From positions 1,952,001 to 2,016,000 of the forward strand of contig OZ242326.1 in NCBI GenBank assembly GCA_965208325.1: DNA of 64,000 bases, read 5' to 3'. A program made the position numbers and the translations under genes. The notes beneath the pieces were generated by a model. The model made no database searches. It was not told the origin of the DNA and was given only the letters and a program-made list of their open reading frames with translations. The DNA is from Candidatus Poribacteria bacterium. Lineage in GTDB: Bacteria > Poribacteria > WGA-4E > PCPOR2b. This document shows, piece by piece, positions 15,346 through 57,037 of this stretch (within the stretch, counting starts at the first letter, position 1; each line of letters begins with the position of its first letter).

Positions 15346-16615
15346 GCGGGGCAAGATGCCCCGCACACGGAGGGTAGCGACGTTCTATATGCCTGCCGCC
15401 CCGCGGGGGCTATAGGGCAGGTTTTTGATGTGTGAGGGCGGCTGGTTGTCGGGCTGAATGAAATATGCAATTGGAATGGAAAAAACAAGAGGATGGTTGG
15501 GGAATAGCGGCGGAGTTGGCGATTGGTAATGCATTGGGGATGGGTGAGGTTTTAAAAGCGTTGGGTTTCGCTACGTTCATTATATTTTGGACGTCGTTAG
15601 GCTTCCGAAGCGCAATGTAAGATTGTACGATATTTGGTGAAATCCGCTCTACCCAACCTACAAGAGCAACGAGTGCGGTGGTCGTGATTCGGAGATTGGT
15701 CCGACAGATACAGGCGATTGGAGGTTGAGGTGAAGACTATCGCCCTCCCTATTCGGTCGGTTGATCGTTGGGTTTCGCTACGTTCATTAGATTTTGGACG
15801 TCGTTAGGCTTCCGAAGCGCAATGTAAGATTGTACGATATTTGGTGAAATCCGCTCTACCCAACCTACAAGAGCTCCAGCAATGAGCGGGGCAAGATGCC
15901 CCGCCTACGGAGGGTGGCGACGTTCTATATGCCTGCCGCCCCGCGGGGGCTATAGGGCAGGTTTTTGATGTGTGAGGGCGGCTGGTTGTCGGGCTGAATG
16001 AATTATGCAATTTGGGATGCAAAAAACAAGAGGATTGTTGGGGAATAGCGGCGGAGTTGGCGATTGGTAATGCATTTGGGATGGGTGAGGTTTTAAAAGC
16101 GTTGGGTTTCGCTACGTTCAATTAGATTTTGGACGTCGTTAGGCTTCCGAAGCGCAATGTGAAATTGTACGTTATTTGGTGAAATCCGCTCTACCCAACC
16201 TACAAGAGCTGTGATTTTTGTGATTAAATGACAGGCTTTTGTGATTAAATGATGGGCTATGATTGATTTTAGTCATTTCGGTACATAATATACACAAAGA
16301 AGTGATTTACAATCGAGGCTAGGAAGCCTCTCCCACACACCGATGTGTCGATGCACAATGTTTGATAATCGAGCTTGATAGGGGCGCGGGAGGTTTTCAA
16401 GGCAGAAGACTGTAGGAAGACTATCGCCCTCCCTATTCGGTCGGTTGATCCCTCCTTATTCGGTCGGTTGATCGTTGGGTTTCGCTACATTCATTAGATT
16501 TTGGACGTCGTTAGGCTTCCGAAGCGCAATGTGAAATTGTACGTTATTTGGTGAAATCCGCTCTACCCAACCTACAAGAGCTCCAGCAATGGGCGGGGCA
16601 AGATGCCCCGCCTAC
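15346..16615. repeat. Composite multi-family REP mosaic (about 540-bp duplication; families A, G, D x4, B, F)
   Basis: A-type copies at 15346, 15886 and 16593. Split-REP D copies at 15560, 15767, 16101 and 16474. No credible CDS. Confidence 0.88.
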
Positions 16616-16738
16616 AGGATGTAGTGGCTCACTGGTGCTGTAAAACATGAATATACGAACAAGTTCTAGGATTTACGCTGCGAACCATCCCCGATGGTGA
16701 GCTTGGAATAAAATGTCCCGACAGGAAAGAATTTATGC

Positions 16739-16767
16739 TTGACAGAAATGTCAATTTTTTGTAAACT
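16739..16767 (+). promoter_or_regulatory. Putative sigma70 promoter with an inverted repeat overlapping -35
   Basis: TTGACA-17 nt-TAAACT, with a TTGACA-gaaa-TGTCAA palindrome. Confidence 0.6.
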
Positions 16768-17014
16768 AAGCAGACTGTTCAGATTTGCCGTTTTTTCAGC
16801 GCAGTGAGAAGGGCTCGGATAGCTAGGCCAGTTTGGCTAATTTACGGAACACACATCCTTGTGAACGTTGGCTCGGTCAGAATGCAAGATTCATTTTCCC
16901 ATTAGGACTTAGCGGCGAATCGGAGCTACATCTTGAATTACTTCCATTCTGTGTCACACTTGACTAAAAGTAGCAGATTATCAAAAATTTCTGAATAGGA
17001 GAGAAAAACAGAAC

Positions 17015-18637: not shown

Positions 18638-19349
18638 AAACCGAGTTTTGAAGAAAAAACTCGGTTTCAAATAGGGGTCGCGATTCGGAGATTGCTCCTA
18701 CAGGGGCGATAGTTTTCTCCGGTTTTAATCTTGTCTTGATTCCCGACGCAAGCCGACCTACAAGAACTTTGCGGACGGCACACGGAGTGTGCCTGCTACT
18801 TTAGCGCGGCAAGATGCCGCGCCTACAAAGGAAATGGATGTGAGTGAAGCAAGATGCCGCGCCTACAAAGGAAATGGATGTGAGTGAAGCAAGATGCCGC
18901 GCCTACAAAGGAAATGGATGTGAGTGAAGCAAGGTGGAGCGGATACGGGGGAAGAAGACGGTTGAGATGCGGCGAATTTTGAAGAAACCGTTTGAAGAAA
19001 AAACTCGGTTTCAAATAGGGGTTGCGATTCGGAGATTGCTCCTACAGGGGCGATAGTTTTCTCCGGTTTTAATCTTGTCTTGATTCCCGACGCAAGCCGA
19101 CCTACAAGAACTTTGCGGACGGCACACGGAGTGTGCCTGCTACTTTAGCGCGGCAAGATGCCGCGCCTACAAAGGAAATGGATGTGAGTGAAGCAAGATG
19201 GAGCGGATACGGGGGAAGAAGACGGTTGAGATGCGGCGAATTTTGAAGAAACCGTTTGAAGAAAAAACTCGGTTTCAAATAGGGGTCGCGATTCGGAGAT
19301 TGCTCCTACGGCGGGTGGGTTTTGGATGAATCCGCTCTGCCCAACTTAC
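18638..19349. repeat. Composite REP mosaic (E-B-J-C-A units)
   Basis: Order: aaaccgagttttgaagaaaaaactcggttt (E), B, tcccgacgcaagccgacctac (J), acggcacacggagtgtgcctgctac (C), A. The unit is repeated about 2.5 times and contains internal 40-bp A repeats. Confidence 0.88.
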
Positions 19350-20622: not shown

Positions 20623-21802
20623 TCTATTTACCTGCCGCCGCGTTGGGGCAATAGGGCAGGTTTTTGCCGTGTGAGGGCGGCTGGTTACCGGGCGCAATTT
20701 ATTGTGCGATTGGAATGGAAAACACAAGAGTGTTTCTGGGGATGAGCTGCGGCGTTGGTGATTGGTAATTCATTTGGGATGGGTGAGGTTTTTAAGGCAG
20801 AAGACTATCGCCCTCCCTATTCGGTCGGTTGATCGTTGGGTTTCGCTTCATTCATCGGATTTTGCACGCAGTTGGGATGGTGGTGCGGTTCGTTAAAATG
20901 GGCGTTTTTTGAATGAATCCGCTCTACCCAACCTACAAGCTGGGCTATGATTAAGCTCATGTAGGTTGGGTTAAGCGGTTTAAACGATAGTCGCGTAAAA
21001 TTTCGAATGGATAGTGTTATTTGAATATTTGCGGAAGTTGTTAAGGTGTAGCGAACCCAACGCTTTTGCGTTTAAGAAACCGAGTTTTGAAGAAAAAAAC
21101 CATAAAAAACTCGGTTTCAAAAAAAGTCGCGATTCGCAGATTGGTCCTACAGGATACAGGAGCTGTCTGAACTGTGATTTATATGATTAAATGATGGGCT
21201 ATGATTAAGGGAGGACATTATCATTCGGGATGGGTAAGGTTTTTAAGGCAGAAGACTATCGCCCTCCCTATTCGGTCGGTTGATCGTTGGGTTTCGCTTC
21301 ATTCATCGGATTTTGCACGCAGATAGGATGGTAGTGCCGTTCGTTTTGATGGGCGGTTTTTGAATGAATCCGCTCTACCCAACCTACAAGCTGGGCTATG
21401 ATTAAGCTCATGTAGGTTGGGTTAAGCGGTTTAAACGATAGTCGCGTAAAATTTCGAATGGATAGTGTTATTTGAAAATTTGCGGAAGTTGTTAAGGTGT
21501 AGCGAACCCAACGCTTTTGCGTTTAAGAAACCGAGTTTTGAAGAAAAAAACCATAAAAAACTCGGTTTCAAAAAAAGTCGCGATTCGGAGATTGGTCCTA
21601 CAGGATACAGGAGCTGTCTGAACTGTGATTTATATGATTAAATGATGGGCTATGATTAAGGGAGGACATTATCATTCGGGATGGGTAAGGTTTTAAAAGC
21701 GTTGGGTTTCGCTTCATTCATCGGATTTTGCACGCAGTTGGAATGGTGGTGCGGTTCGTTAAAATGGGCGTTTTTTGAATGAATCCGCTCTACCCAACCT
21801 AC
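20623..21802. repeat. Composite REP mosaic, 451-bp tandem unit containing inverted pairs of split-REP D
   Basis: D at 20835, 21286 and 21701, inverted D at 20961 and 21412, plus E and B modules. The first about 170 bp are homologous to 15386-15555. Confidence 0.88.
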
Positions 21803-26141: not shown

Positions 26142-26147
26142 AAGATT

Positions 26148-26762: not shown

Positions 26763-28573
26763 GGGTGGAAGGGTGGCGATGATGGGTTTGTGTGGTCGAG
26801 GCAATGTACAAAATTAGTCTGAAATGTGATTTGTGTGATTGAAAATCGAGGCTGGGAAGCCTCTCCCACACACCGGTGAGTCGATGCATAATTTTTTATA
26901 ATCGAGGTTGATTGGGGCGCAGGAGGTTTTTAAGGCAGAAGACTGTAGGAAAACTATCGCCCTCCCTATTCGGTCGGTTGAACGTTGGGTTTCGCTCAGT
27001 TGATCCTATTTCGCCGCGTGATTCCACCAATTACGTTACTTCAGCATTGGCGGGGCAAGATGCCCCGCCTACATGGGGTGGGGGCACACGTAGGGCAAGA
27101 TGCCCGCCTTCGGCGTGTGGTGGCGCACACGGGGCAAGGAAAATCTGTGAGTTTAAGAAACCGAGTTTTGAAGAAAAAACTCGGTTTTAAATACGGGTCG
27201 CGATTCGGAGATCGCTCCTACGGCGGGTGAAGGATTGTTGGAAGAATGGAAGGATGGAAGATTGGCGATGATGGGTTTGTGTGGTCGAGGCAATGTACAA
27301 AATTAGTCTGAAATGTGATTTGTGTGATTGAAAATCGAGGCTGGGAAGCCTCTCCCACACACCGGTGAGTTGATGCATAATTTTTGATAATTGAGCTTGA
27401 TTGGGTTGCGGAAGGTTTTTAAGGCAGAAGACTGTAGGAAAACTATCGCCCTCCCTATTCGGTCGGTTGATCGTTGGGTTTCGCTCAGTTGATCCTATTT
27501 CGCCGCGTGATTCCACCAATTACGTTACTTCAGCATTGGCGGGGCAAGATGCCCCGCCTACATGGGGTGGGGGCACACGTAGGGCAAGATGCCCGCCTTC
27601 GGCGTGTGGTGGCGCACACGGGGCAAGGAAAATCTGTGAGTTTAAGAAACCGAGTTTTGAAGAAAAAACTCGGTTTTAAATACGGGTCGCGATTCGGAGA
27701 TCGCTCCTACGGCGGGTGAAGGATTGTTGGAAGAATGGAAGGATGGAAGATTTGCGATGATGGGTTTGTGTGGTCGAGGCAACTTACAAAAATAGTCTGA
27801 ACCGTGATTTGTGTGATTGAAAATCGAGGCTGGGAAGCCTCTCCCACACACCGGTGAGTCGATGCATAATTTTTTATATTCGAGGTTGATTGGGTTGCGG
27901 GAGGTTTTCAAGGCAGAAGACCTTAGGAAAACTATCGCCCTCCCTATTCGGTCGGTTGAACGTTGGGTTTCGCTCAGTTGATCCTATTTCGCCGCGTGAT
28001 TCCACCAATTACGTTACTTCAGCATTGGCGGGGCAAGATGCCCGCCTACATGGGGTGGTGGCACACGTAGGGCAAGATGCCCGCCTTCGGCGTGTGGTGG
28101 CGCACACGGGGCAAGGAAAATCTGTGAGTTTAAGAAACCGAGTTTTGAAGAAAAAACTCGGTTTTAAATACGGGTCGCGATTCGGAGATCGCTCCTACGG
28201 CGGGTGAAGGATTGTTGGAAGAATGGAAGGATGGAAGATTGGCGATGATGGGTTTGTGTGGTCGAGGCAAGGTACAAAATAGTCTGAAATGTGATTTGTG
28301 TGATTTACAATCGAGGCTGGGAAGCCTCTCCCACACACCGGTGAGTCAATACATAATTTTTGATAATCGAGCTTGATTGGGTTGCGGGAGGTTTTTAAGG
28401 CAGAAGACTGTAGGAAAACTATCGCCCTCCCTATTCGGTCGGTTGATCCTCCGCTATTCGGTCGGTTGATCGTTGGGTTTCGCTCTGTGTATATTGACAG
28501 AAGCATCTTTAGAAATGCTGAACGTCAATCGCTGCCTGAACCGTATTGGGATTATTCGCTCTACCCAACCTAC
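26763..28573. repeat. Composite REP mosaic, 489-bp tandem unit in about 3.5 copies
   Basis: Unit order: F (tcgaggctgggaagcctctcccacac), K (actatcgccctccctattcggtcggttga), D left arm, A, A, E, B. Ends with a complete D at 28472-28573. Confidence 0.92.
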
Positions 28574-38840: not shown

Positions 38841-40825
38841 CGGCACTCGGCGTGGACCTGCTACTTTGAGCGCGGCAAGATGCCGCGCCTACGGTAAGGG
38901 GAAAGGGGACGCGACTACGACAGGGGGTAAAGGGGATTGACGCCGTGACTACGATGGGGGTAAAGGGTTAGAGCCGCAAATACAGTCGGTAAATGCGGGG
39001 AAGGAAGCAACGGATACGGGGTGACGGAACACGGAGTGGGCATGCTACTTTAAGCGCGGCAAGATGCCGCGCCCACGGTAAAGGTAAAGGGGAAAGAGGC
39101 CGTGACTGCAGTAGGGATATGCGGGGGAACAAGCAACGGATACGGGGTGACGGCACACGGCGTGGGCATGCTACTTTGAGCGCGGCAAGATGCCGCGCCT
39201 ACTACAGGGGGTAAAGGGGAAAGACGCCGTGACTACGATAAGGGTAATAGGGAAAGATGCCGCGGATACGACGTGACGGAACACGGAGTGGGCATGCTAC
39301 TTTGAGCGCGGCAAGATGCCGCGCCTACAATAAAGGTAAAGGGGAAAGAGGCCGTGACAACGATGGGGGTAAAGCGGATAGAGGATGCGACTACGACAGG
39401 GGGTAAAGCGGAAAAAGCCGTGACTACGAGGGGGATAAAAGGGAATAAGGCAACGGATACGGTGTGACGGCATACGGGGTGGGAATGTTACTTTGAGCGC
39501 GGCAAGATGCCGCGCCTACGGTAAGGAGAAAGACGCCGTGACTACGAGGGGGGTAAAGGGGAAAGACGCCGCGACTACGATAAGGGTAATAGGGAAAGAT
39601 GCCGCGGATACAGTAGGGATATGCGGGGAGGAAGCAACGGATACGGTGTGACGGCATACGGGGTGGGAATGTTACTTTGAGCGCGGCAAGATGCCGCGCC
39701 TACAATAAAGGTAAAGGGGAAAGACGCCGCGACTACGATAAGGGTAATAGGGAAAGATGCCGCGGATACAGTAGGGATATACGGGGAGGAAGCAACGGAT
39801 ACGACGTGACGGAACACGGAGTGGGCATGCTACTTTAAGCGCGGCAAGATGCCGCGCCTACGGTATAGGTGAAGGGGAAAGAAGCCGCGACTACGACAGG
39901 GGGTAAAGGGGGAAGAGGACGCGAATACAGTAGGAATATCCAGAGGAAAAGGCAACGGCTACGACGAGACGGCACACGGAGTGGGCATGCTACTTTAAGC
40001 GCGGCAAGATGCCGCGCCTACGAGGGGGGTAAAGGGGAAAGATGCCGTGACTACGACAGGGGGTAAAGGGGGAAGAGGACGCGAATACAGTAGGAATATC
40101 CAGGGGAAAAGGCAACGGCTGCGCCGTTGCGGCACACGGAGTGGGAATTCTATTTTGAGCGCGGCAAGATGCCGCGCCTACGGTAAGGTAAAGGGGAAAG
40201 ACGCCGTGACAACGATGGGGGTAAAGCGGATAGAGGATGCGACTACGACAGGGGGTAAAGGGGATAGAGGACGCGAATACAGTAGGTTAATGCGGGGGAA
40301 GAAGCAACGGATACGACGTGACGGCACACGGCGTGGGCATGCTACTCTGAGCGCGGCAAGATGCCGCGACTACGGTAAGGGTGAAGGGGAAGAGGACGTG
40401 ACTACGATGGGGGTAAAAGGGAATGAGGACGCGACTACGGTTAGGGTAAAGGGGAAAGACACCGTGACTACGATGGAGGTATAGGGGAAAGAGGACGCGA
40501 ATACAGTAGGTTAATGCGGGGGAAGAAGCAACGGATACGACGTGACGGCACACGGCGTGGGCATGCTACTTTAAGCGCGGCAAGATGCCGCGCCTACGGT
40601 AAGGGTAAAGGGGAAAGATGCCGCGACTACGAAGAGGGTAAATGGGAAAGAGGACGCGACTGCAGTAGGTAAATGCGGGGGAAGTGGCAACGGATACGGG
40701 GTGACGGCCCACGGAGTGTGAATTCTACTTTGAGCGCGGCAAGATGCCGCGCCTACGGTTAGGGTAAAGGGGAAAGAAGCCGCACCTACGACAGGGGTAA
40801 AGGGGAACGAGGCGCGACGACGGTA
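38839..40825. repeat. 2-kb purine-rich REP array: about 12 C-A doublets plus GGGGTAAAGGGGAAA half-REP mini-units
   Basis: gacggcacacggagtgggcatgctac-tttga-gcgcggcaagatgccgcgcctac recurs every 120-225 bp, with about 31-bp ggggtaaaggggaaagacgccgtgactacga units in between. Confidence 0.92.
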
Positions 40826-41008
40826 GAAATATGCGAGGGAAGAGGCAAGGCATAGGATAGGCATCTTGGTGTGGATTCGCCAATTCCTCAACCAAACAGA
40901 TGTTTTTGCGTCTAACACAGACTGAATGTACAAGCATATAAACAGCGTTGAGATATGATATCTTCGTAATCCCATGCATCATTTATTGACCTCCAGAGGA
41001 AACAGGTT

Positions 41009-44000
41009 TTGATTTTCAAAGAATTTAAGCGCCATATGGCTGGAAGGATGTCGACCGCAGGGCGTTTTCATATTGTTTTACTTCTATCTGTCCTCCAGCT
41101 GTTGTTTCATCTACCCTTACCGTTTTCCCCGGTACAGCCGCTAGCTTGGGGGCTGGGTTTTGACTCCGAACCGCAGGTCATTGATGACGCAGACGAAGAT
41201 GATGTTTTCAGCCCAAACGGAGACGATGTTCAGGATAAACTGCTAATCAGTTTTGTGACGGATGGCGCTCGAGGGGATTTTCGGATTATTATTGACGTGC
41301 ACGGCGGAGGTGGGATTGGCCCCCCCGACGGCGAATTCGATCCCGACGATGATTGGCTAATCATCGGTGAAATCGGTTCGGGAGCGACCGAAAATGACGC
41401 TCCCAAAGTTATTCGCCAGGAGTGGGACGGTAAAGACCGGTCTCCGGAACAAGAGGGACCGACCACGGCTCGTGCCGTGAGGGACGGAACGTACACGATT
41501 CGCGTCGATATTGATGATTTTCAAGACGGCAGGGTGGACGGGGTATTTGGCCGCCGTGAAACCGAGACCGTAACTGCCACGGTTGACACAACCTCGCCTC
41601 GGGTGACCGTACAGATATCCCTCCGTGAGTTTTCGCCCAATGATGATGGCATCAAAGATTCAACGGAGTTTATTTATTCCCTCTCCGAATCACTCCCTGA
41701 CGATTCGGCGGCGCGTGAGCCGGCACTACAGTTAGAGTTTACCCAACCCAACCGCCCCGCGATTTCTCTGACTATACGCTCAGAAGGAGACCACCCTTAC
41801 AATTGGGAAGGTAATGACGGTTCCGGCATACCGTTGGGCGACGGCACCTACAATCTGCAACTGCGGGGCGTTGACAAAGGCGGTAATATCGGTACTTTCG
41901 AAATTGGAGCGGTAACCATAGACACTGAACCGCCGTCCGTCTTGCAGGTCACTCCGGGCGGCATCACCTTTCAAAACACGCCGATTTCAGTAATTGAGGT
42001 GATAGTCAATCCGGGTGACGGATCCGCCATTGATTTCACTCCGACGGGAACAGATATTACGTTACAAAACGAAACCGGCGACCCGATCGCGGGGAGATTA
42101 AGCCGCAACGATAACCGCCTCACGCTGACTCTCGATACTCCTTTGGACGACATTGAGGAAAATGGAGAATACACGGTCACCGCCGATGTGTTGGACTTGG
42201 CGGGGAACGGCGTTCAGGAAACCGTGAATTTCACATTCGATACAAGCCCGCCGATTGTGACTAGACTTACTGCCAACGGCTTGGACCTAAAACCCGGAAC
42301 AGCGTTCAACACGCCGCTGCAGTTTGTCCAAGCCTTTCTCGCAGATAACATTGCGTTGAATCGCAACGCCTCGACCATCCGCCTGAATGGGCCTAGCGGC
42401 GCAGTCGATGGCGGACAGGGCCCCGTCGGCGAGAATGGTATCCAATTTTGGTTGAGTTTCCCCTTAGAAACCGATGGATCGGATGACGGCACTTACACAC
42501 TCACGGTTGTGCCTGTGGACAGCGCAGCCAACGAAGGTTCACAGCGGCAAATTTCTTTCATTTACGACACCCAACCACCGCAACTCCTCTCACTTAACCC
42601 GATTGAGATGTCGGAACCGCGGACGTTCCGGAACACTCTGATTTCTCAGGTAACCGCCGCCTTTGACGACGGGGATGGCAGCGGCATCAATCTTGATACG
42701 ACGACAATTGAGATGGCACGTCAAGTTGAAGTTGGTGATACCGCCCCGGTAGCAGGTGAGTTGATTCCGAATGTGAACGACAGCACCCTGGTCTTTCGGT
42801 TGAACCAACCGCTGCAAGTCCGCGATGGCAGTCAGGATGGCGCTTATAGGGTTCAGGTCAGCTTTGCTGACAAGGTGGGCAACGCTCAATCAACAGATGC
42901 TGTTCTGATTTTTGACACGCAGGCACCCGTGCTTACCGCGACAACACCGGAGGACAATGCAACGGTTTCATCTCTGTCCGAAGTCACTGTTCGCCTCGAC
43001 GATGCGACGAGCGGGATTGATTTTTCATCCACAACCGTCAGGCTGCTGCATGGGGGGAATGCGGTCAGCGCTGACGCCAGCGATAACGGACAAGATACGG
43101 TGACGCTCTCGTTGGCGAAACCGCTGGCAACCGACGGATCAGACGACGGTGAATACACTATTGAGATTTCGCCCGCCGACCGCGCCGGCAACATTGGAAC
43201 AGTGCGCCACAATCGGTTCTTCTTTGAAACGCGAATCCCGGAGATTCGGCTCAATGTACCCAGCGAGTCCCAAGTCAGCACGTTGGGGACAATCGAGGCG
43301 CAACTGTTGGATTACGTGGGTCCCGGGATTAGTTTCTCCGCTGTTCTGCAAGACGGCGTTTTGCGCCGCGAATCGACAATTCAGGTGATTGGACCGGATG
43401 GCGGCGTTGTTTTACCCAAAGAAATAACTGCCGATTCGGAACATGCACGGTTGATTTGGACGATTGGTACACCTCTTCCGCGCGACGGCTCGGCAGACGG
43501 CGATTACACGGTCAGGGTAAGATATGTAGATATAGCGGACGCTGCTTTTACGGAAGATTTTACCTTTACGTTTGATACACAGATTCCAACCGTCGCAAGT
43601 ACAACACCGGGAGCCGGCGATATCGTTACGGCGTTGAATCAAGTAGTTGTAAAATTCGAGTCGGACGTTAGCGGTGTGGATCTCGGTGCTTCCGAGGTGC
43701 GTCTAATTCAGCCCGATGGTTCGCCAATTTTGTCAAACATATCGAATGACGGGTTCGACACAATTGTATTGCAATTTAATCCGCTGCCGACAGATGGAAC
43801 CGCGGACGGTATTTTCGCGATTGAAGTCACTTCCGCGGATCGGGCAGGGAATGCGGCAGACGCGCCATTGCGGTTTGAATTTACGTACGCGACGCAAACT
43901 CCGGAGATTCGACTGAATTCCCCCAGCGAAACTCACATCAGCAACTTGACTACCGTTGAGGCGCAACTGTTGGGTTACACCGGTCCCGGCATCAATTTCT

Positions 44001-47000
44001 CACCCGTGTTGCAAGACAGCGATTTGCGCCGGAGATCGACGATTCAGGTGACAGGGCCCGATGGACAGGTGGTACCGGCAGAGGAGATAACTGCCGACGC
44101 GGAAAACGCGCGTTTAACGTGGGCGATTGACACCGTCTTGCCCCGCAACGGGACGGCAGACGGGCAATACACCGTCAGTGTGAGGTATGAAGATTCCGCG
44201 GGCAGCGCTTTCGCCGAAGAGTTTACCCTTGTTTTTGACACGCAAATTCCGACCGTTGTTAGTACAACACCAAGCGCCGGCGACAACATCTCCGAATTGA
44301 GTCAAGTTATTGTTAAATTCGAGCCGGACCTTAGCGGTGTCGACCTCGCCGCTTCCCAAGTGCTTCTAATTCAACCTGATGGCACGCCGATTTTGTCGAA
44401 CACGTCGAACGACGGGCTTGACACAATTATGCTGCAATTTAATCCGCTGCGGACAGATGGGGCTGCTGACGGGATTTACGCGATTGAAATCACGTCCGTG
44501 GATGGTGCGGGAAATGTCTCCGACGCGCCATTTCGATTTGAATTTACGTTCGCAACACAGTCACCGGAGATTGACACGCTGGTGCCGGCAGACAATGCGA
44601 TTGTCAACAGCGTGGAAGATATTACGGCGACGCTGATTGACAAAAGCGGAAGCGGGATTGATTTTTCGCAATCGACAATCATATTGAAAAATGCCCTTGG
44701 CGAGAGAATCGCGGGAGTTTTGAGAAATGACGGCGCACAGACGCTCACGCTGGAGACTACACTACCAACCGACGGCGCGGCGGACGGGGGGTACACAATC
44801 GAACTTAATTTAGTTAATGAACTCGGCACGGCAGCGGATTACACAAGCGTTTTTCTGTATGACAGCCACCCGCCGCAGATTACGCCGGAATCCCGCATGC
44901 CCGCGGACAGTGCGACGAACCGGAATCAAATTGAAGTTGAATTTGAAGTAGTAGACCCGGCGCCTTCCACGGCAAGAGACGGCGTGGAAGGGTCGGGGAT
45001 TGATTTTTCTGCGTCAGAGGTGCAATTGATGGCGCCGGACAATTCTCCAATTGACGGCGAGAAGACCTACGACGGAATAAGCCGCATCACCTTTGAATCC
45101 GCCGCGTTTTCGAGTGTCGGGACATACACCCTCGTCGTAACGCTGGTGGATATAGCGGGCAACAGCGGGATTCCGCAGACATTTACAATCGCATACGACA
45201 TGGAAAAACCCGTCATTGAGGCGTTGAACGCGATTACGCCATCGGACGCCGTTCCCCTCGACATTATTGGCGGTGCGTCCAACATCAGCAACCAGTTGAC
45301 GCGTGTCGAGGTTGTCTTGAGCGACGACAGTGCAGGGATAGATTTTAACCGCACATCGGTGCAGATTTTGAACCCTGACGGGGACGCAGTTGCCGGCACA
45401 CTTAATAACGACAGCAGCGAAACGGTTTGGCGGCTGCTTGATACCCCTCTTTCTCGTACCGGCGACGCCGACGGCGCGTATTCAATCCGCGTACAAGCCT
45501 ACGATAAAGCCGGGAATTTTGAAGACATATCGTTCATCCTGCGTTACGACACGCAAGCGCCGAACGTAGAATCTATTCGCGCTGAACAGACTGACGGTAT
45601 GAGTATTGATGTGCTTCAGGAATCTACAGTCATCATGTCCCCCATCCACCGTCTAATCGTAGCTTTCTCGGACGATGGCGGCAGCGGCATGGATTTCTCA
45701 AGGACGGCTGTGCGTCTAACCGCCCCGAACGGGGACGAGATTGGCGGAAATCAATCCGATGATGGGGCCGGTACTGCGATTTTCAGTTTTAATGCGCTGC
45801 CGGTAAACGGATTGGCTGACGGGCGTTACCGCATTCAGGTGACGCCAACAGATTTGGCGGGTAACACGTACACCAGTCCAATCGAATTTCCGTTCTTTTA
45901 TAGTACCCAGAATCCGGAGATAGTCTCGACGACACCGGCTGCGTTTTCATACGCTGCCCGGCTCACGTCTGTGAGCGCGGCGCTGCTAGATCACAGCGGC
46001 GAGGGTATTGATTTCGAGCGATCTACTATTCAGCTTACGGGGCCAGCGGGCAACCCGGCCGCGGGACGCATTCGCGCAGACAAAACGGCTTCGACACTTA
46101 CGTTGGAGTTGGATACCGCCCTGGCTCGAAACGGGGATGCAGATGGAGAATACGTCATCGGACTGACCGTCGCCGATAAAGCGGGCAACGTCGTCGAAGC
46201 ATCTAACACGTTTATATACGACACGCAGATACCACGGATTGTGTCCGTGACCGCAAATACCGATCCCCCAACGAACATCGAGGCTGACCAGTTAGAAATT
46301 ATAGATACGTCGTTGCATGAGATTGCTGTCATATTCTCAGACGCATATGATAAAATAACCGCAGTCAGCGGGGTAGACCTCGCGGGAACATCGGTTCGAT
46401 TGATTGCGCCGGGGGAAACTCAGGTCGACGTACACGCCCGGGACGACGGGGTTGACACGATGACCGTCACTTTTACGCGCTTGACCCGTTCCGGCAACTA
46501 CACGCTCGAAATCACACCGCATGACCTCGCCGGCAACGTATCGGGGCGCGCCATCCCTTACAATTTCCGCATTGAGTTGGCGCCTCCCCGCGTGGAAGCT
46601 GTCACCATTGGCGGACATTCTGCACCGGTTGAGTTTGTTAATGCGGTGGACACCATCGCCGCCTCGCTTATAGATGTCAGCGGCATCGGTTTAGACTTGA
46701 CCTCCGACGGGTCGAGAATTATTGTGGTTGGACCCGACGGAGAGGTTGACGGAATTCAGAGCACGCGCGGCACGAATGAGATTGTCTGGACGCCGTTGCA
46801 ACTGGCGACGGACGGTACAATGGACGGCACCTATACGGCGACAATCACCCCAATTGATGCTGCTGGTGAAGCCGGCATTCCGGCGCGGCATCAATTCATA
46901 CTGGATACGCAGCCGCCCGCGGTAAGTGCGGTGTCGCCAATCACTCTCACGGAACCGGTATCTTATATCGGGGAGCAGATTTCGCAAATCGCTGCATTGG

Positions 47001-49258
47001 TAGTTGACACGGGTCCGGCTGGGCTGAAAATCGATGAACAGCGAATTCACTTATTGGATTCACACGAGAACCTTATCCCAGGAGATTTAACCAATGACGG
47101 CACCGAACTGATAATCTTCACGCTTTCTCAGTCTTTGGCAACCGATGGCAGCGACGATGGAACATACACCGTAATACTTGTTCTCAGCGACAATGCTGGC
47201 AATTTGAGCGGCATTGCGCATCAGGTGGTGTATGACACGATAGCCCCAACGGTGCAAACACACCCGGCAGACGGCGAGGCGATTCGTGATGATATTCGTA
47301 CAATTTCAGCCGATTTACGGGATACGGGCGGCAGCGGCATCGATTTCGACGCGTCGACTTTGACCCTTTTGGATGCAAGCGGCGAAGAAATTACCGGTGA
47401 GCCGAACAACGATGGCCGCGGGCGGATGACACTGCAGATTCCGGGGCTTGTGACGGACGGGAACTATACTATCCGCGTCCTAGCTGTGGATCGCGCGGGA
47501 AATGGCGCCGATTCGCCTTTCACGGCGCGTTTCCTTTATTCGTCAAGTATACCGGCGGTGGTTTCGACAATCCCAGCGACTTCGCCTCCTGAAAGAGCAA
47601 CTACGAACAGACCCCTTCGCCAGGTTGAAGCTCAACTTCAGTTTGACGGAGACGACTCGGATCGTTCAACGATTACACTGCTCTCTCCCGACGGTACACC
47701 TGTGGCGGGAATACAGACTGAAGCTGGAAGCAGATTAGTGTATCGGCTGTCGCGCCCTCTTGCTTCGGATGGATCTGACGATGGCATGTATACCATTTCG
47801 GTGATACCGGTCAATCGCGCCGGACGCCAGGGGGCAACGCGGCAATTTACCTTTGCTTACGATACGATTCCACCCGAGGCCGATCCGGATACCGTATCGT
47901 TGATTGTAGCGGAACCGGGCGTTAACAATGCGCTCAACGAGATTCAGGTACTGATTACCGACGCCGAGCCGGGTTCGGGAATTAATTGGGACGATTTGGC
48001 TGAATCTTGGCTCACGCTTGAGAACATTGAGACGGGCCAGCGCATTCGCGGTACGTTGTCTAGCGATGAGCAGGAAACGCTTTCCTTGCGACTGGCGACG
48101 CCGCTTGCCAGCGACGGAAGCCAAGATGGCGCATACCGCGTAACCGTAGTTGCCGCGGACCGCGCAAAGAACACCTCGGATCCGGTGATGTACGAGTTCA
48201 CCTACGATACACGTCCGCCGCTAGTTATTACGCATTCCTTAGAAATCAATGATCAGCCTCTGCTCTACGATAGGGAGCATACCGACTATCCATCGGCAAC
48301 TAACAGAATTATCGGCGTAGTCATTCGGGCAAGACTGGAAGATATTGCCCGCGACGGCACGCGCGGGCTGGGAGTTGACCTCTCTCAATCAACAATTGCT
48401 CTGCATGATCCGGGGGGAAATCCGATAAACGGGCACATGCGCCAAAACGGCGTGGATGCGATTGAGTTCAAATCTGACGCACTATCAACCGAAGGGCTTT
48501 ATCAGGTTACCATCACGAGCGTTGGGTTAGATGAGGCGGATCTCGGTTTTCAACCGATGGATTCAATCTCTACGGAGTTTCTTTATGAAAGAACTGAACC
48601 GGTTGCCGCGCTCACGGATTTCGGCGGCGTCACGACACTTGAAAACGAACCGATTCCGTTAAGTGGCACGGCTCATGATCCGGAGACGGAAGAAGTTTCC
48701 GCATCCGGAGTTCTGCAGATTGAGATTGTTGGCGTCGGTCCCGACGGCGCCCCGATCAATCCGGTGCCGGCGCAAGATGTAAGTGAAGCGGAGGAGGAAC
48801 CGTGGAGCCGCTGGTCGGCCGATTTTCTGCCCACGCAATCCGGGGTATACAACCTTGATATTCGCGCCACTGATCAGGCGGGCAACGTTTCGGTGGTTGA
48901 CGGCGTAACGGCGACGTTCTCGGTTTCGCTCTCTTTCAAGGGATCGACGTATGTTTGGCCGAATCCCGTGAGACATTCAATCGGGGATGCGGCTAACTTC
49001 TCCTTCGATATCAACGCCCCGGTCGACGATCGGATGGACGTACTCTTAAGTATTTACGATTTTGCCGGCGATCTCGTATACTATGAGGAGTTTCAAGAAA
49101 TTTCCGCGGGCCGAACCGATCAGCTCGTGACGTGGAATCTAGAAAATCAATCGGGCGCCGACGTTGCGCGCGGTGTCTATATCTTCCGTCTTGAAGCGCA
49201 GCGTACCGGTTCAGAAGAACGTGCAAATGTAGTTGGCAAGGTTCTTGTTGTTGAATGA
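41009..49258 (+). CDS. Giant secreted Ig-like repeat protein with N- and C-terminal FlgD-Ig/T9SS-like domains
   Basis: About 20 units of DT..P...SG.D...S.I.L..P.G...PL..DGS.DG.Y......D.AGN. N-terminal FSPNGDD/WDGKD. C-terminal VWPNPV...IYDFAGDLV...WNLENQSGADVARGVYIF. Start uncertain (41009, 41036 or 41048). Confidence 0.88.
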   Translation: MIFKEFKRHMAGRMSTAGRFHIVLLLSVLQLLFHLPLPFSPVQPLAWGLGFDSEPQVIDDADEDDVFSPNGDDVQDKLLISFVTDGARGDFRIIIDVHGGGGIGPPDGEFDPDDDWLIIGEIGSGATENDAPKVIRQEWDGKDRSPEQEGPTTARAVRDGTYTIRVDIDDFQDGRVDGVFGRRETETVTATVDTTSPRVTVQISLREFSPNDDGIKDSTEFIYSLSESLPDDSAAREPALQLEFTQPNRPAISLTIRSEGDHPYNWEGNDGSGIPLGDGTYNLQLRGVDKGGNIGTFEIGAVTIDTEPPSVLQVTPGGITFQNTPISVIEVIVNPGDGSAIDFTPTGTDITLQNETGDPIAGRLSRNDNRLTLTLDTPLDDIEENGEYTVTADVLDLAGNGVQETVNFTFDTSPPIVTRLTANGLDLKPGTAFNTPLQFVQAFLADNIALNRNASTIRLNGPSGAVDGGQGPVGENGIQFWLSFPLETDGSDDGTYTLTVVPVDSAANEGSQRQISFIYDTQPPQLLSLNPIEMSEPRTFRNTLISQVTAAFDDGDGSGINLDTTTIEMARQVEVGDTAPVAGELIPNVNDSTLVFRLNQPLQVRDGSQDGAYRVQVSFADKVGNAQSTDAVLIFDTQAPVLTATTPEDNATVSSLSEVTVRLDDATSGIDFSSTTVRLLHGGNAVSADASDNGQDTVTLSLAKPLATDGSDDGEYTIEISPADRAGNIGTVRHNRFFFETRIPEIRLNVPSESQVSTLGTIEAQLLDYVGPGISFSAVLQDGVLRRESTIQVIGPDGGVVLPKEITADSEHARLIWTIGTPLPRDGSADGDYTVRVRYVDIADAAFTEDFTFTFDTQIPTVASTTPGAGDIVTALNQVVVKFESDVSGVDLGASEVRLIQPDGSPILSNISNDGFDTIVLQFNPLPTDGTADGIFAIEVTSADRAGNAADAPLRFEFTYATQTPEIRLNSPSETHISNLTTVEAQLLGYTGPGINFSPVLQDSDLRRRSTIQVTGPDGQVVPAEEITADAENARLTWAIDTVLPRNGTADGQYTVSVRYEDSAGSAFAEEFTLVFDTQIPTVVSTTPSAGDNISELSQVIVKFEPDLSGVDLAASQVLLIQPDGTPILSNTSNDGLDTIMLQFNPLRTDGAADGIYAIEITSVDGAGNVSDAPFRFEFTFATQSPEIDTLVPADNAIVNSVEDITATLIDKSGSGIDFSQSTIILKNALGERIAGVLRNDGAQTLTLETTLPTDGAADGGYTIELNLVNELGTAADYTSVFLYDSHPPQITPESRMPADSATNRNQIEVEFEVVDPAPSTARDGVEGSGIDFSASEVQLMAPDNSPIDGEKTYDGISRITFESAAFSSVGTYTLVVTLVDIAGNSGIPQTFTIAYDMEKPVIEALNAITPSDAVPLDIIGGASNISNQLTRVEVVLSDDSAGIDFNRTSVQILNPDGDAVAGTLNNDSSETVWRLLDTPLSRTGDADGAYSIRVQAYDKAGNFEDISFILRYDTQAPNVESIRAEQTDGMSIDVLQESTVIMSPIHRLIVAFSDDGGSGMDFSRTAVRLTAPNGDEIGGNQSDDGAGTAIFSFNALPVNGLADGRYRIQVTPTDLAGNTYTSPIEFPFFYSTQNPEIVSTTPAAFSYAARLTSVSAALLDHSGEGIDFERSTIQLTGPAGNPAAGRIRADKTASTLTLELDTALARNGDADGEYVIGLTVADKAGNVVEASNTFIYDTQIPRIVSVTANTDPPTNIEADQLEIIDTSLHEIAVIFSDAYDKITAVSGVDLAGTSVRLIAPGETQVDVHARDDGVDTMTVTFTRLTRSGNYTLEITPHDLAGNVSGRAIPYNFRIELAPPRVEAVTIGGHSAPVEFVNAVDTIAASLIDVSGIGLDLTSDGSRIIVVGPDGEVDGIQSTRGTNEIVWTPLQLATDGTMDGTYTATITPIDAAGEAGIPARHQFILDTQPPAVSAVSPITLTEPVSYIGEQISQIAALVVDTGPAGLKIDEQRIHLLDSHENLIPGDLTNDGTELIIFTLSQSLATDGSDDGTYTVILVLSDNAGNLSGIAHQVVYDTIAPTVQTHPADGEAIRDDIRTISADLRDTGGSGIDFDASTLTLLDASGEEITGEPNNDGRGRMTLQIPGLVTDGNYTIRVLAVDRAGNGADSPFTARFLYSSSIPAVVSTIPATSPPERATTNRPLRQVEAQLQFDGDDSDRSTITLLSPDGTPVAGIQTEAGSRLVYRLSRPLASDGSDDGMYTISVIPVNRAGRQGATRQFTFAYDTIPPEADPDTVSLIVAEPGVNNALNEIQVLITDAEPGSGINWDDLAESWLTLENIETGQRIRGTLSSDEQETLSLRLATPLASDGSQDGAYRVTVVAADRAKNTSDPVMYEFTYDTRPPLVITHSLEINDQPLLYDREHTDYPSATNRIIGVVIRARLEDIARDGTRGLGVDLSQSTIALHDPGGNPINGHMRQNGVDAIEFKSDALSTEGLYQVTITSVGLDEADLGFQPMDSISTEFLYERTEPVAALTDFGGVTTLENEPIPLSGTAHDPETEEVSASGVLQIEIVGVGPDGAPINPVPAQDVSEAEEEPWSRWSADFLPTQSGVYNLDIRATDQAGNVSVVDGVTATFSVSLSFKGSTYVWPNPVRHSIGDAANFSFDINAPVDDRMDVLLSIYDFAGDLVYYEEFQEISAGRTDQLVTWNLENQSGADVARGVYIFRLEAQRTGSEERANVVGKVLVVE

Positions 49259-49288
49259 TGGGTGACGGAACAATTCTATGCGTTTAAA

Positions 49289-50181
49289 AAACCGAGTTTT
49301 GAAGAAAAAACTCGGTTTTAAATTGAATAGGTTTTTGTAGGTTCAAAAGCGTTGGGTTTCGCTTCAATCATCGGATTTTCGTACGCGATAAAGTTTACAG
49401 GGCGGTTCGTTTTAATGGGCGATTTTTGGATGAATCCGCTCTACCCAACCTACAAAAACTTGATCCCGGGCTACCGTGTGTGGGTAGTGCGGTTGCACAA
49501 AAAGTTACGGCACACGGAGTGCGCATACTACTTTGCGCGGCAAGATGCCGCGCCTACAATGGGAATGGATGCGGCGCGAGTTTCGGCGAATACCTTGGAA
49601 ATTTGCGGGTTGAGATGGCGCCGGGTTACGACGTGCAGCGGGGGGTCCTGCGATTACGGAAATGGTTACGGCACACCGAGAATATTGAAGAAACCGAGTT
49701 TTGAAGAAAAACTCGGTTTTGAATTTAATAGTTTTTTGTAGGTTGGGTAGAGCGGATTTGGTAATTGATGTGTAGTGTTTTGTGGGCAGTACCTACGTTG
49801 GGATTGATGGGTTAATGTAATAGCGGAGCGAAACCCAACGTTTTTGGAGCGTTGGAATAATAGAACGATAGACACCAAAACGATTGGATAAAGGAAATTC
49901 ATTGAGAGGATTTGGATTCCGGAGCGGTGTGTGGTATTTAGAAGTTCATAGGGTTGCGGGAGGTTTCAAAAGCGTTGGGTTTCGCTTCAATCATCGGATT
50001 TTCGTACGCGATAAAGTTTACAGGGCGGTTCGTTTTAATGGGCGATTTTTGGATGAATCCGCTCTACCCAACCTACAAAAACTTGATCCCGGGCTACCGT
50101 GTGTGGGTAGTGCGGTTGCACAAAAAAGTTACGGCACACGGAGTGTGCCTACTACTTTGCGCGGCAAGATGCCGCGCCTAC
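49289..50181. repeat. Composite REP mosaic (E-D-C-A-E-invertedD-D-C-A)
   Basis: D at 49351 and 49974, inverted D at 49738, and C-A doublets near 49507 and 50131. Confidence 0.88.
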
Positions 50182-50259
50182 AATGGGAATGGATGTGAGC
50201 AATATTTATGCACAATTTTATCTGAAAATTTGATATAATATTTGGTTAAGCCCGATTGT

Positions 50260-50296
50260 AAGGGGCAGTCTACCGCAGATTGCCCCTTCGTTTTTG
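50260..50296 (+). terminator. Intrinsic-terminator-like hairpin in the leader of the NHL gene
   Basis: aaggggcagtct-accgc-agattgcccctt followed by cgtttttt. Confidence 0.5.
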
Positions 50297-50322
50297 ATAT
50301 CTGATGCATATTTTATGGGAGA

Positions 50323-51276
50323 ATGATAATGGACCAATCAACATCGAACCGCGGCGCCGAGATTGAAATTGAGGGTAGCGGCGGGTTTAGATACGAGGTC
50401 GCCCAAGATTGGGAACAGTTGCCGCAAGGATTACGCTTCGGCGAAGTGGCAGGGGTAGCGGTAGACTCAAACGACCGCGTTTATGTTTTCCACCGCAGCG
50501 AGACTCCGGTTGTTATCTTCGAGCGCGACGGCACTTTTGTGAACTCTTGGGGCGAGGGAGACTTCGCTCGACCACACGGCATATTTATTGGACCTGACGA
50601 TTCAGTGTATCTTACCGATGATTTCGACCACACCGTTCGGAAGTTTACGACGGACGGCGAGCTACTCCTGACGTTGGGTGTCAGCGGCGAATGCCCGGAT
50701 ACCGGCGTAATAAACATGGATCCGGGCACGGTTGTCCGCGCGGGACCGCCCTTCAATTTGCCGACCAATTTAGGTCTTTCCCAGAATGGCGACATGTATA
50801 TCTCGGATGGTTATGGCAACGCGCGCGTCCACAAATTTTCGGCGGATGGCGAGTTGCTTTTATCGTGGGGAGAACCCGGCACTGGGCCCGGGCAGTTTAT
50901 TCTCCCGCACGGCGTGGCTCTGGACCGGAATGACAAAGTGTACGTCGCGGATCGGTCGAACAACCGAATCCAAGTCTTCACGGCTGGCGGCGAGTATCTG
51001 ACCGAATGGACGGATACAGAATCTCCGTGCCAGCTATTCATTGACGCCGACGACTATGCTTACGTAGCGGAATTGCCCGGCCGAGTCAGTATTTTTGATC
51101 TCAACGGCGCACTCCAAGCACGGTGGGGTACCGGCAGCGGGGCGGACATTCCGGGCGATTTGCAGGGCGCCCACGGGATTTATGTTGATGCGCATGGAGA
51201 CTTGTACGTGGGAGAAGTCGGTCTTATGCCAGAATCGCCGAATCGACATCATTTGCAGAAGTTTATCCGAATTTGA
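50323..51276 (+). CDS. NHL-repeat protein (peptidyl-alpha-hydroxyglycine amidating lyase-like family)
   Basis: GVAVDSNDRVYVFHR, RPHGI, YISDGYGNARVHKFS, PGQFILPHG and YVADRSNNRIQVF. Confidence 0.9.
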   Translation: MIMDQSTSNRGAEIEIEGSGGFRYEVAQDWEQLPQGLRFGEVAGVAVDSNDRVYVFHRSETPVVIFERDGTFVNSWGEGDFARPHGIFIGPDDSVYLTDDFDHTVRKFTTDGELLLTLGVSGECPDTGVINMDPGTVVRAGPPFNLPTNLGLSQNGDMYISDGYGNARVHKFSADGELLLSWGEPGTGPGQFILPHGVALDRNDKVYVADRSNNRIQVFTAGGEYLTEWTDTESPCQLFIDADDYAYVAELPGRVSIFDLNGALQARWGTGSGADIPGDLQGAHGIYVDAHGDLYVGEVGLMPESPNRHHLQKFIRI

Positions 51277-51296
51277 ATCTAATTTGAATGTATTTG

Positions 51297-51325
51297 CCTT
51301 CGGAAGGACTTCAGCCTTCCGAAGG
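51297..51325. repeat. Perfect 11-bp inverted repeat (REP-like or terminator)
   Basis: ccttcggaagg-acttcag-ccttccgaagg. Confidence 0.55.
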
Positions 51326-51387
51326 TTCCACGCTCCAGCAAACCGTATCGACCACAATCAGATTTATATTGAAAGACCAGAGGCGAC

Positions 51388-53043: not shown

Positions 53044-53091
53044 ATAAACGGCACAATTGGGGCAATCAATTGGTTAGATTCTAATTGCGCT

Positions 53092-55461: not shown

Positions 55462-55719
55462 GGTAGGGTTCCTTCAAGCTAAGGTGTAGGGGCGCGGTGC
55501 TAACATTAAGTCTTGGCGCTCTATATGAATTGTTAATGCTTCGTTTGCTGTTTATTGCGCCAAATTGTTGTGCCAGAATATCGATCTTGACAGCGGTTAA
55601 CGGGTCGGCTATGATATTCGCGAATTGTCCGCTCATTTCTGCCTTGAAAAGAGAATAACACCCCTCCACCCAATTGTCTAGAGATTTTTGGAATACCCGA
55701 TCTTACGCTTAGCGTTAAA

Positions 55720-57037
55720 GAAGCCAAGTTTTGAAGAAAAAACTCGGCTTCAAACAAAGCCCGCGATTCGGAGATGGATGCTGCGGGATACAGCAGTTGT
55801 CTGAACTGTGATTTATTTGATTGAATGGTGGGCTATGATTGTGGGAGCACATAATGATTCGGTGTTGAAGCGTAGGCGGATTGGCTACCGCTTACAACAA
55901 CTCGGACTTCGCCAATTGGTGTTTGGGACAGTGTTCGTGTTGGGTAATCATTTGGGATGGGAGAGGTTTTAAAAGCGTTGGGTTTCGCTCCATTCATCGG
56001 AATTTGCACGCGGTGAGGTTGACGAAGCGATTCGTATTGATGGGCGGTTTTTGGCTGAATACGCTCTACCCAACCTACAAGAACTGTCTGAACTGTGATT
56101 TATTTGATTGAATGATGGGCTATGATTGTGGGAACACATAATGATTCGGTGTTGAAGCGTAGGCGGATTGGCTACCGCTTACAACAACTAGGACTTCGCC
56201 AATTGGTGTTTGGGACTTGTTCGTGTGGGGTAATCATTTGGGATGGGAGAGGTTTCAAAAGCGTTGGGTTTCGCTCCATCCATCGGAGTTTGCACGCGGT
56301 AAGGTTGACGAAGCGATTCGTGTTGATGGGCGGTTTTTGGCTGAATACGCTCTACCCAACCTACAAAAACTGTCTGAACTGTGATTTTTGTGATTGAATG
56401 GTGGGCTATGATTGTGGGAACACATAATGATTCGGTGTTGAAGCGTAGGCGGATTGGCTACCGCTTACAACAACTAGGACTTCGCCAATTGGTGTTTGGG
56501 ACTTGTTCGTGTGGGGTAATCATTTGGGATGGGAGAGGTTTTAAAAGCGTTGGGTTTCGCTCCATTCATCGGAATTTGCACGCGGTGAGGTTGACGAAGC
56601 GATTCGTGTTGATGGGCGGTTTTTGGATGAATCCGCTCTACCCAACCTACAAGAACTGTCTGAACTGTGATTTATTTGATTGAATGATGGGCTATGATTG
56701 TGGGAGCACATAATGATTCGGTGTTGAAGCGTAGGCGGATTGGCTAACGCTTACAACAAATAGGATTGCGTCAATTGGTGTTTGGGACGGTGTTCGTGTT
56801 GGGTAATCATTTGGGATGGGAGAGGTTTCAAAAGCGTTGGGTTTCGCTATATCCATCGGAATTTGCACGCGTTGAGGTTGACGGGGCGATTGGTGTTGAT
56901 GGGCGGTTTTTGGCTGAATCCGCTCTACCCAACCTACAAGAGCTAAATCGCAGAATTTTGCTGCATTTAAGAAACCGAGTTTTGAAGAAAAAAAACTCGG
57001 TTTCAAATAAGGGTCGAGATTTGGAAATCGCTCCTAC
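55720..57037. repeat. Composite REP mosaic, 286-287-bp tandem unit x4 bracketed by E-B modules
   Basis: D at 55977, 56263, 56549 and 56836. Each unit also has gaactgtgatt...gatgggctatgatt and the imperfect hairpin tgttgaagcgtaggc-ggatt-ggctaccgcttacaaca. Confidence 0.92.

Follow-up and report, generated by a model that had tools for sequence, protein, structure and literature searches.

Sequences of the repetitive extragenic palindromic (REP) type that carry the tag GTAG beside a hairpin form the substrates of REP-associated tyrosine transposases (RAYTs). In the accessible parts of the GTAG REP survey (PMC3733652), stems measure 6–13 bp and the longest loop reaches 27 bp, most loops being 2–4 bp long. 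For TnpA-REP of E. coli, the accessible text states that the enzyme depends on the GTAG and cleaves at CT dinucleotides to either side of the hairpin (PMC3479197). Among REPINs, the GI REPIN is described, in the available sections of the source, as having 71 bp between two 16-mers (PMC3116915). The repeat family considered here, termed REP-B, was encountered in a 64,000-nt stretch of the genome of a sponge symbiont, a Candidatus Poribacteria bacterium (contig OZ242326.1, positions 1,952,001 to 2,016,000; hereafter the window), where it is represented by 17 long-loop copies, and it was then followed through the whole genome, a single 4.71-Mb contig (G000), and through related genomes. With a probability of about 0.65, REP-B is a GTAG-tagged REP family whose apical loop has grown to approximately 84 nt, whose arms would be read by a RAYT, and whose core is not cargo.

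Read on its GTAG strand, the element consists of GTAG, a stem half, three unpaired bases, GC, the core, GC, three unpaired bases, and the other stem half. The stem half comprises 7 bp (GTTGGGT/ACCCAAC) or, in a TTR...TAA arm variant, 9 bp; the arm variants co-vary, thereby lengthening the stem from 7 to 9 bp. The unpaired bases above this lower stem are AGA and GAA, 84 nt lie between the stem halves, and the whole long form measures 100–104 nt. Across 106 distinct 102-nt copies, hardly any variation is seen in the GTAG, the stem, or the flanking bases, and each of the four GTAG positions, present on one side only, is kept in 104–105 of these copies. The arm stem is the only pairing retained in the consensus folds of nine clusters, and the arms are paired in the minimum-energy single-stranded DNA (ssDNA) fold of five out of six window copies. 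The arms also occur around loops of just 4–20 nt; such short forms are present in G000 as well as in 23 out of 41 related genomes, and in one neighbouring genus they are more numerous than the long form. The GTAG is preceded by AGYTCTT, and the 3′ arm is followed either by GCTTTT or by a 35-nt module (D). CT dinucleotides, the candidate cleavage sites, start at position −3 in 86, at −5 in 55, and at +2 in 118 of the 186 genomic copies; as judged from the sequence, the CT beside the hairpin that membership in a REPtron calls for thus appears to be present. A reading made earlier from the letters of the window alone (the sequence-only reading) had recognised the RAYT substrate signature in the GTAG and the hairpin, and this is borne out by the GTAG REP anatomy of the arms as well as by the RAYT genes that the elements flank in the sister genomes G001 and G003.

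Among the families covered by the accessible text of the GTAG REP survey, REP-B comes closest to GTAG-3, GTAG-14, and GTAG-15, which have the E. coli-like format (PMC3733652): an unpaired GTAG at one end, a stem (7–9 bp here), and unpaired trinucleotides between the stem and a loop with GC-rich ends. The same source describes head-to-head and tail-to-tail dimers, tandem clusters, several families per genome, and an intergenic location, all of which recur here; the high copy number, the inverted pairs, and the tandem arrays with periods of 158–489 bp are those of the GTAG REP superfamily. In contrast to the GTAG REPs described there, REP-B maintains a fixed 84 nt between its stem halves, and this interval is not self-complementary. 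The short form (29–35 nt) falls within the size range of a GTAG REP (20–40 bp), whereas the long form (100–104 nt) lies outside it. Neither GTTGGG nor CCCAAC occurs in the accessible text of the survey, whose family consensus sequences stand in a figure. With the REPtron of E. coli, as portrayed in the available portions of two reports (PMC3479197, PMC8266576), REP-B has in common the GTAG, the lower stem, a stem irregularity, the CT beside the hairpin, and a variable apex. Unlike REP-B, which is known from its sequence alone, the E. coli system is described in these portions without any constraint on apical length. Size aside, REP-B has the defining features of a GTAG REP, and in the sister genomes only it also has those of a REPtron.

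REPINs, as the accessible parts of their description present them (PMC3116915), have inverted conserved ends, a less conserved spacer, a sharply preferred spacing, a total length of about 100 nt, and a RAYT flanked by repeats, and REP-B resembles them in each of these respects, in the last one in the sister genomes; the figure of 71 common to REP-B and the GI REPIN is a numerical coincidence. A REPIN, however, is made of two full REPs with a pairing spacer, whereas REP-B is a single hairpin around an unpaired core: its cores have no consensus pairing and fold like shuffled sequences. REPINs, moreover, are described there as centring on a master sequence, while REP-B has 171 distinct cores in 186 copies and no more than 10 dispersed pairs with an identity of at least 85%.

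The attC sites of integrons carry a core site and an inverse core site with the consensuses GTTRRRY and RYYYAAC, and they, too, have a variable centre and are read as a folded single strand. The REP-B heptamers fit both consensuses. In contrast to attC, which starts with RYYYAAC, REP-B starts with GTTGGGT and ends with ACCCAAC on both strands, and unlike in integrons no gene cassettes lie between the copies. Terminal inverted repeats, a length of about 100 bp, an intergenic location, and many copies are also what would be seen in a transposable element of the miniature inverted-repeat kind (MITE) mobilised by a DDE transposase, the 7–9 bp arms being its termini. Such an origin is extremely improbable, as GTAG marks just one end, making the pair asymmetric, and the flanks (AGYTCTT on one side, GCTTTT or the D module on the other) contain no direct repeat and hence no target-site duplication; short hairpin forms with the same arms exist, and a RAYT is associated with the family in the sister genomes. 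Nor did any locus that was read show a DDE gene between such termini, as a full-length insertion sequence would have. REP-B falls outside the definitions of a REPIN in the strict sense, of an attC site, and of a DDE-type MITE. The literature searched offered no link between Poribacteria and REPs, and the arm words were found only in primers and unrelated matches.

The genome contains 331 5′ arms and 215 3′ arms. Measured between each 5′ arm and the 3′ arm that follows it, 186 copies have cores of 68–73 nt (one of 68, 7 of 69, 16 of 70, 116 of 71, 38 of 72, and 8 of 73 nt; standard deviation 0.8 nt), and every other distance below 1000 nt occurs only once or twice. Most copies lie outside crude open reading frame (ORF) calls, that is, between genes. 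Exact-pattern matches number 130 in G000, 77 in the related genome G002, 36 in G001, and 38 in G003. A scan of other genomes, one per species and with cores of 55–85 nt allowed, yielded, among the matches listed, at least 127 copies at no fewer than 118 loci, mostly in Poribacteria metagenome-assembled genomes (MAGs) and to some extent in Desulfobacterota MAGs. The core lengths among these listed matches are, as lower bounds, one of 57, two of 64, one of 66, 7 of 68, 7 of 69, 23 of 70, 56 of 71, 21 of 72, 7 of 73, and two of 74 nt. The cores of other Poribacteria MAGs cannot be aligned to those of this genome. The distribution is therefore narrow rather than broad, genome-wide as well as in related MAGs, and the length constraint that the sequence-only reading had suspected from 17 copies is real: the same narrow spread recurs in the at least 127 copies elsewhere, and core indels arise at the background rate.

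A lower indel rate inside the cores was considered and ruled out, since small gap events between G000 and G002 are as frequent per site in cores (7 in 1503 aligned sites) as in neighbouring intergenic DNA (71 in 13,765; p = 1). Taking 35% identity between clusters as roughly 1.5 substitutions per site, and 0.03–0.05 gap events per substitution, 3–5 indels would be predicted for each pair of cores, as opposed to the observed standard deviation of 0.8 nt. Because indels arise in the cores at the background rate and yet the spread of lengths is narrow, a length filter is the simplest reading. Something thus appears to filter on core length, such that copies of the wrong length would either fail to propagate or face negative selection.

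At a threshold of 60% identity, the 171 distinct cores form about 23 clusters. Between clusters, cores compared in register agree at 35.2% of positions, as opposed to 23–28% when shifted by 1–8 nt. Autocorrelation peaks at lags of 17–19 and 35–37 are seen in 17 of the 23 clusters; most control lags peak in 2–10 clusters, lags of 46–48 reach 14–17, and the z-scores are inflated because related copies are not independent. In the at least 127 cores from other genomes, the top lags are again 37, 18, 36, and 17. The proposal that whatever measures the distance between the arms ignores the content is not upheld by this relatedness in register and by the common periodicity of about 18/36 nt. A coding function was rejected, as each of the six frames is open in at most 61 out of 172 distinct copies. 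When all cores were compared with the genome by BLAST, 95 of the 896 hits lay outside elements, and these correspond to about two dozen degenerate copies and to the D module of one odd element. A 1.2-kb stretch with five elements had no match among 50,697 phage and 72,556 plasmid records. Rather than cargo, the cores are distantly related sequences that keep a common register and have an internal repeat of about 18/36 nt as their basis.

These results bear directly on a ruler-type HUH mechanism capturing or exchanging ssDNA of fixed size between the arms, as had been suggested from the sequence alone. Cores of one length with diverse content (171 distinct sequences in 186 copies) would be its natural product, comparable places in G000 and G002 hold the same arms around unrelated cores, and the loop can also be filled by the 35-nt D unit. 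Neither the genome, where cores match outside elements only their own degenerate copies and the D module, nor the phage and plasmid records searched with the 1.2-kb stretch supply a donor, however; the relatedness in register and the single common periodicity point to descent, and the apparent replacements sit in wholly rearranged spacers. Capture of cargo is accordingly a very improbable account of the cores.

Two compositional classes can be told apart, a G-poor class I (53 distinct 71-mers) and a C-poor class II (28). Inverted neighbours usually comprise one core of each class, so that the same genomic strand stays G-rich. Class II is not inverted class I, since its local alignment to the reverse complement scores 13.9 as compared to 13.5 for shuffled sequences, and an origin of the classes by deamination was likewise rejected, C:T and A:G pairings in register not being enriched (1.09 and 0.87). 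A link between strand skew and transcription also failed, because the trend per element vanishes when counted per locus (20 vs 17); intergenic skew in general has no relation to gene orientation. In comparison with intergenic 71-mers, the cores have a lower GC content and a higher absolute G/C skew (0.29 vs 0.18). Their folding energy as RNA equals that of shuffled sequences (−9.2 vs −9.1 kcal/mol); random intergenic 71-mers fold more strongly (−12.5 kcal/mol, p = 4e-11). On neither strand could a consensus structure be detected in the nine largest clusters.

Another option had been that the elements are a family of small RNAs about 100 nt long, which would share their ends and differ in their bodies. 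The constant termini are able to pair, most copies have a T-run (GCTTTT) after the 3′ arm, and some arm variants contain G-T pairs, as such transcripts would. The option fares poorly, nevertheless, against the missing conserved fold on either strand, a folding energy that equals that of shuffles and is weaker than in other intergenic DNA, and the absence of a Rfam match, of a common promoter-like site, and of any consistent orientation relative to neighbouring genes when loci are counted (20 vs 17); it is regarded as improbable. Candidate assignments of the cores to known RNAs had been discarded as well, with no Rfam match at gathering thresholds and with ARAGORN reporting only a tRNA-Phe elsewhere in the window, and scans for promoters and terminators gave scattered consensus matches within some subfamilies only.

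The D module, of which the genome has 191 copies at up to seven mismatches, directly adjoins the 3′ arm of many elements and elsewhere occupies the REP loop in place of the 71-nt core. In the window, it is found at 15732–15766, 16427–16473, 20800–20834, 21251–21285, and 28426–28471. A derivation of the cores from this module was tried and dropped, as nhmmer with a profile of 144 distinct D copies matched only the one D-containing element. In Desulfobacterota MAGs, the same arms are found inside a nested palindrome of 200 nt. In a Desulfobacterales MAG (G041, locus L056, positions 1–222), they lie 71 nt apart within such a palindrome of about 200 nt, which has outer inverted repeats of 26 nt, two stems in which each arm pairs with an inverted copy of itself (17 bp for the 5′ arm, 13 bp for the 3′ arm), and a loop of some 50 nt; its ssDNA folding reaches z = −9, and many near-identical copies occur in that genome.

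A RAYT gene flanked by the family, for which the sequence-only reading had proposed to look, was found in the sister genomes. Twenty RAYT-like loci were identified in G001, G002, G003, G010, and G013, and the two with the highest scores, 201.7 bits in G001 and 195.3 bits in G003, have 11 and 12 REP-B heads within 1.5 kb, including long copies of 100–104 nt, one of which starts about 70 nt from the gene. Among the remaining 18 loci, one that adjoins the first has 6 REP-B heads and the other 17 have none or one. The protein, RAYT-B, comprises 180 amino acids and is 81% identical between G001 and G003; relatives at 45–47% identity exist in another Poribacteria family and in a Desulfobacterales MAG. 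A cognate RAYT thus exists within the genus, and it seems to have been lost from the present genome. The RAYT gene of the window, RAYT-1 (3857–4342, minus strand; NF047646, 130 bits at a cut-off of 80), is flanked by another family, REP-A, and is not the cognate of REP-B. Its co-occurrence with REP-B is patchy, G001 having 36 copies and no RAYT-1 match, and it was rejected as a partner. REP-A is a GTAG REP and a classical hairpin with a perfect 7-bp stem and a 5-nt loop; four copies, oriented like the gene, flank RAYT-1 at 3783–3805, 3822–3844, 4364–4386, and 4404–4426. A second, weaker RAYT-like gene outside the window (RAYT-2, 74 bits and thus under the cut-off) is flanked by a third hairpin family, a AAACCGAGTTTT...AAAACTCGGTTT palindrome, which shares spacers with REP-B elements and is found at 21076–21118, 49287–49318, and 49694–49724 of the window and at 1130–1260 and 1865–1900 of locus L002.

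Recently dispersed copies are few. Only 10 dispersed pairs, more than 20 kb apart, have cores that are at least 85% identical. In five of these, similarity ends within 7 nt of the 5′ arm and within 0–1 nt of the 3′ arm, and therefore the unit once copied was the element itself; in the other five, it extends 30–92 nt beyond the 3′ arm. All other near-identical copies are neighbours in the tandem arrays. Turnover was assessed by comparison with G002, which is collinear and about 93–95% identical; 1.6 Mb of G002 was taken in, and 24 of 87 element-bearing spacers had both flanking genes within it. Orthologous spacers differ widely in length (e.g., 4227 vs 151 bp and 3954 vs 977 bp). In the first of these, a 4.1-kb block with six long-loop elements (G000:C1:2032278-2036079) is wholly absent from G002. 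Out of 64 elements in the 24 spacers, 37 have a G002 counterpart with at least 74% core identity, and the others have either no counterpart or face an element with an unrelated core. At the place where the window holds 1064 bp with three elements (49259–50322), the spacers of G001 and G003 measure about 170 bp and are free of elements. In the collinear alignments of G000 and G002, the arms differ at 27 of 717 sites (3.8%), the cores at 222 of 1503 (14.8%), and other intergenic DNA at 1379 of 13,765 (10.0%).

The preferred explanation may be put as follows. A RAYT would read the invariant arms on ssDNA, that is, GTAG, the lower stem of 7–9 bp, the AGA/GAA bases, and the first GC pairs of the upper part, and the CT dinucleotides at fixed places just beyond both arms would serve it. 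RAYT-B would be the enzyme that mobilises REP-B. In the present genome, REP-B looks orphaned because RAYT-B was not found there, and its population would change mainly by tandem duplication, block deletion, and replacement, while the cores, low in GC, strongly skewed in G/C, and unstructured, would evolve by substitution.

Several observations weigh against this explanation. RAYT-B was found neither in this genome nor in G002, the best match being RAYT-1 with an identity of 26–27%, and neither of the two RAYT-like genes of this genome is flanked by REP-B; the two genomes without RAYT-B nevertheless hold the most copies (130 and 77, as opposed to 36 and 38). None of the 20 RAYT loci in G032, G037, G038, and G041 is flanked by REP-B on both sides, one exact head being present at the far edge of one locus and heads with one deviating base at two. 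The 24 orthologous spacers of G000 and G002 yielded no clean pair of a filled and an empty site with breaks at the arm ends, and the only loss that could be read clearly is not an excision but a deletion between two microhomologies of 6 nt. In their accessible parts, two reports describe TnpA-REP as monomeric and the upper part of the E. coli REP as non-specific (PMC3479197, PMC8266576), and no ruler is described in the available portions of the RAYT literature consulted. Finally, the arms diverge less than the cores although both G000 and G002 are devoid of RAYT-B, which hints at a constraint other than transposition. The deficit is real but modest, with 27 arm mismatches as compared to about 36–53 expected under neutrality, and overstated, because the G000 copies were selected for intact arms; only the G002 branch could change, and about half of the neutral divergence is to be expected. 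A possible retention of the arms without RAYT-B is the main point that divides selfish and host-function readings.

A host function would be provided if REP-B were an architectural site on double-stranded DNA, in which the inverted half-sites GTTGGGT and ACCCAAC, 84 bp apart, were bound by a protein that wraps or bends a spacer of four units of about 18 bp, both distance and phase being of importance. E. coli bacterial interspersed mosaic elements (BIMEs) bind IHF and gyrase, and in REP-B the length tolerance of about ±1 nt, the cores that keep register with an internal periodicity of 18/36 nt, the peaks of A/T-rich dinucleotides approximately every 9 bp in class I cores, and the lower divergence of arms than of cores between two genomes without RAYT-B could all be accommodated. 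The A/T phasing is weak, however, and absent from class II, the periodicity may be historical since related copies inherit patterns, no candidate protein is known, and no preference for a type of spacer is seen. Copies are also freely gained, lost, and replaced between genomes that are about 5% apart, which fits poorly with a site essential to its locus. Taken together, an architectural role is unlikely.

Equally unlikely is a variant in which the length of the loop is measured by a protein on ssDNA, an unstructured single-stranded loop of about 70–84 nt being sized to wrap one particle. Here, the loop would consist of four units of about 18 nt, kept from G-C pairing by the G/C skew; the wrapped particle would unite the two weak 7-bp arm halves for the RAYT, and loops of the right length alone would be processed. 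The tetramer of the single-stranded DNA-binding protein (SSB), with binding modes of 65 nt and 35 nt, would be one candidate particle. If this were true, REP-B would be a REP with a built-in molecular ruler and would reveal a new way of defining the substrate of an HUH enzyme.

All 17 copies that the sequence-only reading had placed in the window were recovered by arm matching and direct reading, and their core lengths were confirmed as 71 nt in 14 copies and 72 nt in three (16101, 49351, and 49974). The 18-nt 5′ arm has 18 window matches at up to three mismatches as opposed to 0.01 expected from shuffles, and the 13-nt 3′ arm has 22 as opposed to 1.9. The inverted copies at 20961 and 21412 have 3′ arms of 12 nt, one A short, which were missed by the arm-match search and added by direct reading. 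The identity of the cores starting at 15573 and 55990, estimated earlier at about 43 of 71 ungapped positions, is exactly 43/71, and the cores at 20979, 28485, and 49756, in which no similarity to others had been seen, match other window cores at 21–29 of 71 positions, with the exception of the tandem twin at 21430.

The copies lie on the minus strand unless stated otherwise. The first group comprises 15560–15661 (71-nt core of the G-poor class I, cluster 2), 15767–15868 (71 nt; preceded on the plus strand by the 35-nt D module), 16101–16203 (72 nt), and 16474–16575 (71 nt). Next come 20835–20936, with a 71-nt class I core, and, facing its GTAG end over 24 nt, the plus-strand copy 20961–21061, which has the arm variant TTAAGCGG, a 12-nt 3′ arm, and a 71-nt core of the C-poor class II. 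The copy at 21286–21387 (71-nt core) belongs to the second unit of a 451-bp tandem, and the plus-strand copy 21412–21512 is the twin of 20961, their cores being identical at 70 of 71 positions. The copies at 21701–21802 and 28472–28573 have 71-nt cores, the latter in cluster 6. At 49351–49453 (72-nt core), the orthologous G002 spacer contains no counterpart; the plus-strand copy 49738–49839 has a class II core that differs from its G002 orthologue at 6 of 71 positions, and at the place comparable to 49974–50076 (72-nt core) G002 holds an element with an unrelated core. A tandem array with a period of 286 bp accounts for the last four copies (55977–56078, 56263–56364, 56549–56650, and 56836–56937). 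Orphan arms are also present on the minus strand, namely a 5′ arm with two mismatches at 19332–19349, which has no 3′ arm 71 nt away, and three 3′ arms at 26984, 27473, and 27962 (26984–27974), one in each unit of a 489-bp tandem repeat.

Other features of the window include an ORF of 2749 amino acids (41009–49258) that ends 93 nt ahead of the first element of the group at 49351. At lower coordinates, about 2 kb of nested tandem repeats (38884–40848; periods of 33, 126, and 160–192 nt) are built of REP-A-like pieces and a G-rich motif; the ORFs at 40047–40484 and 40571–40975 overlap these repeats and are probably not genes. The tRNA-Phe (GAA) predicted by ARAGORN at 51258–51345 is, with 88 nt, longer than a usual tRNA, and its end overlaps the ORF at 50323–51276.

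Few bacterial repeats are commoner than REPs, yet the features that make a copy functional are known for only a small number of model systems, in which the apex is considered unimportant. REP-B keeps one length of an unstructured 84-nt loop while the sequence of this loop drifts to near-randomness, and the narrow length spans several genera of Poribacteria and a few Desulfobacterota MAGs with the same arms. The family thereby supplies a natural set of substrates with which the measuring of ssDNA, by a RAYT or by a partner protein, could be examined, and sister genomes with and without the cognate transposase offer a natural comparison for the persistence of a REP population. REP-B repeats also explain much of the variation in intergenic size in these genomes, and they are places at which short-read assemblies break.

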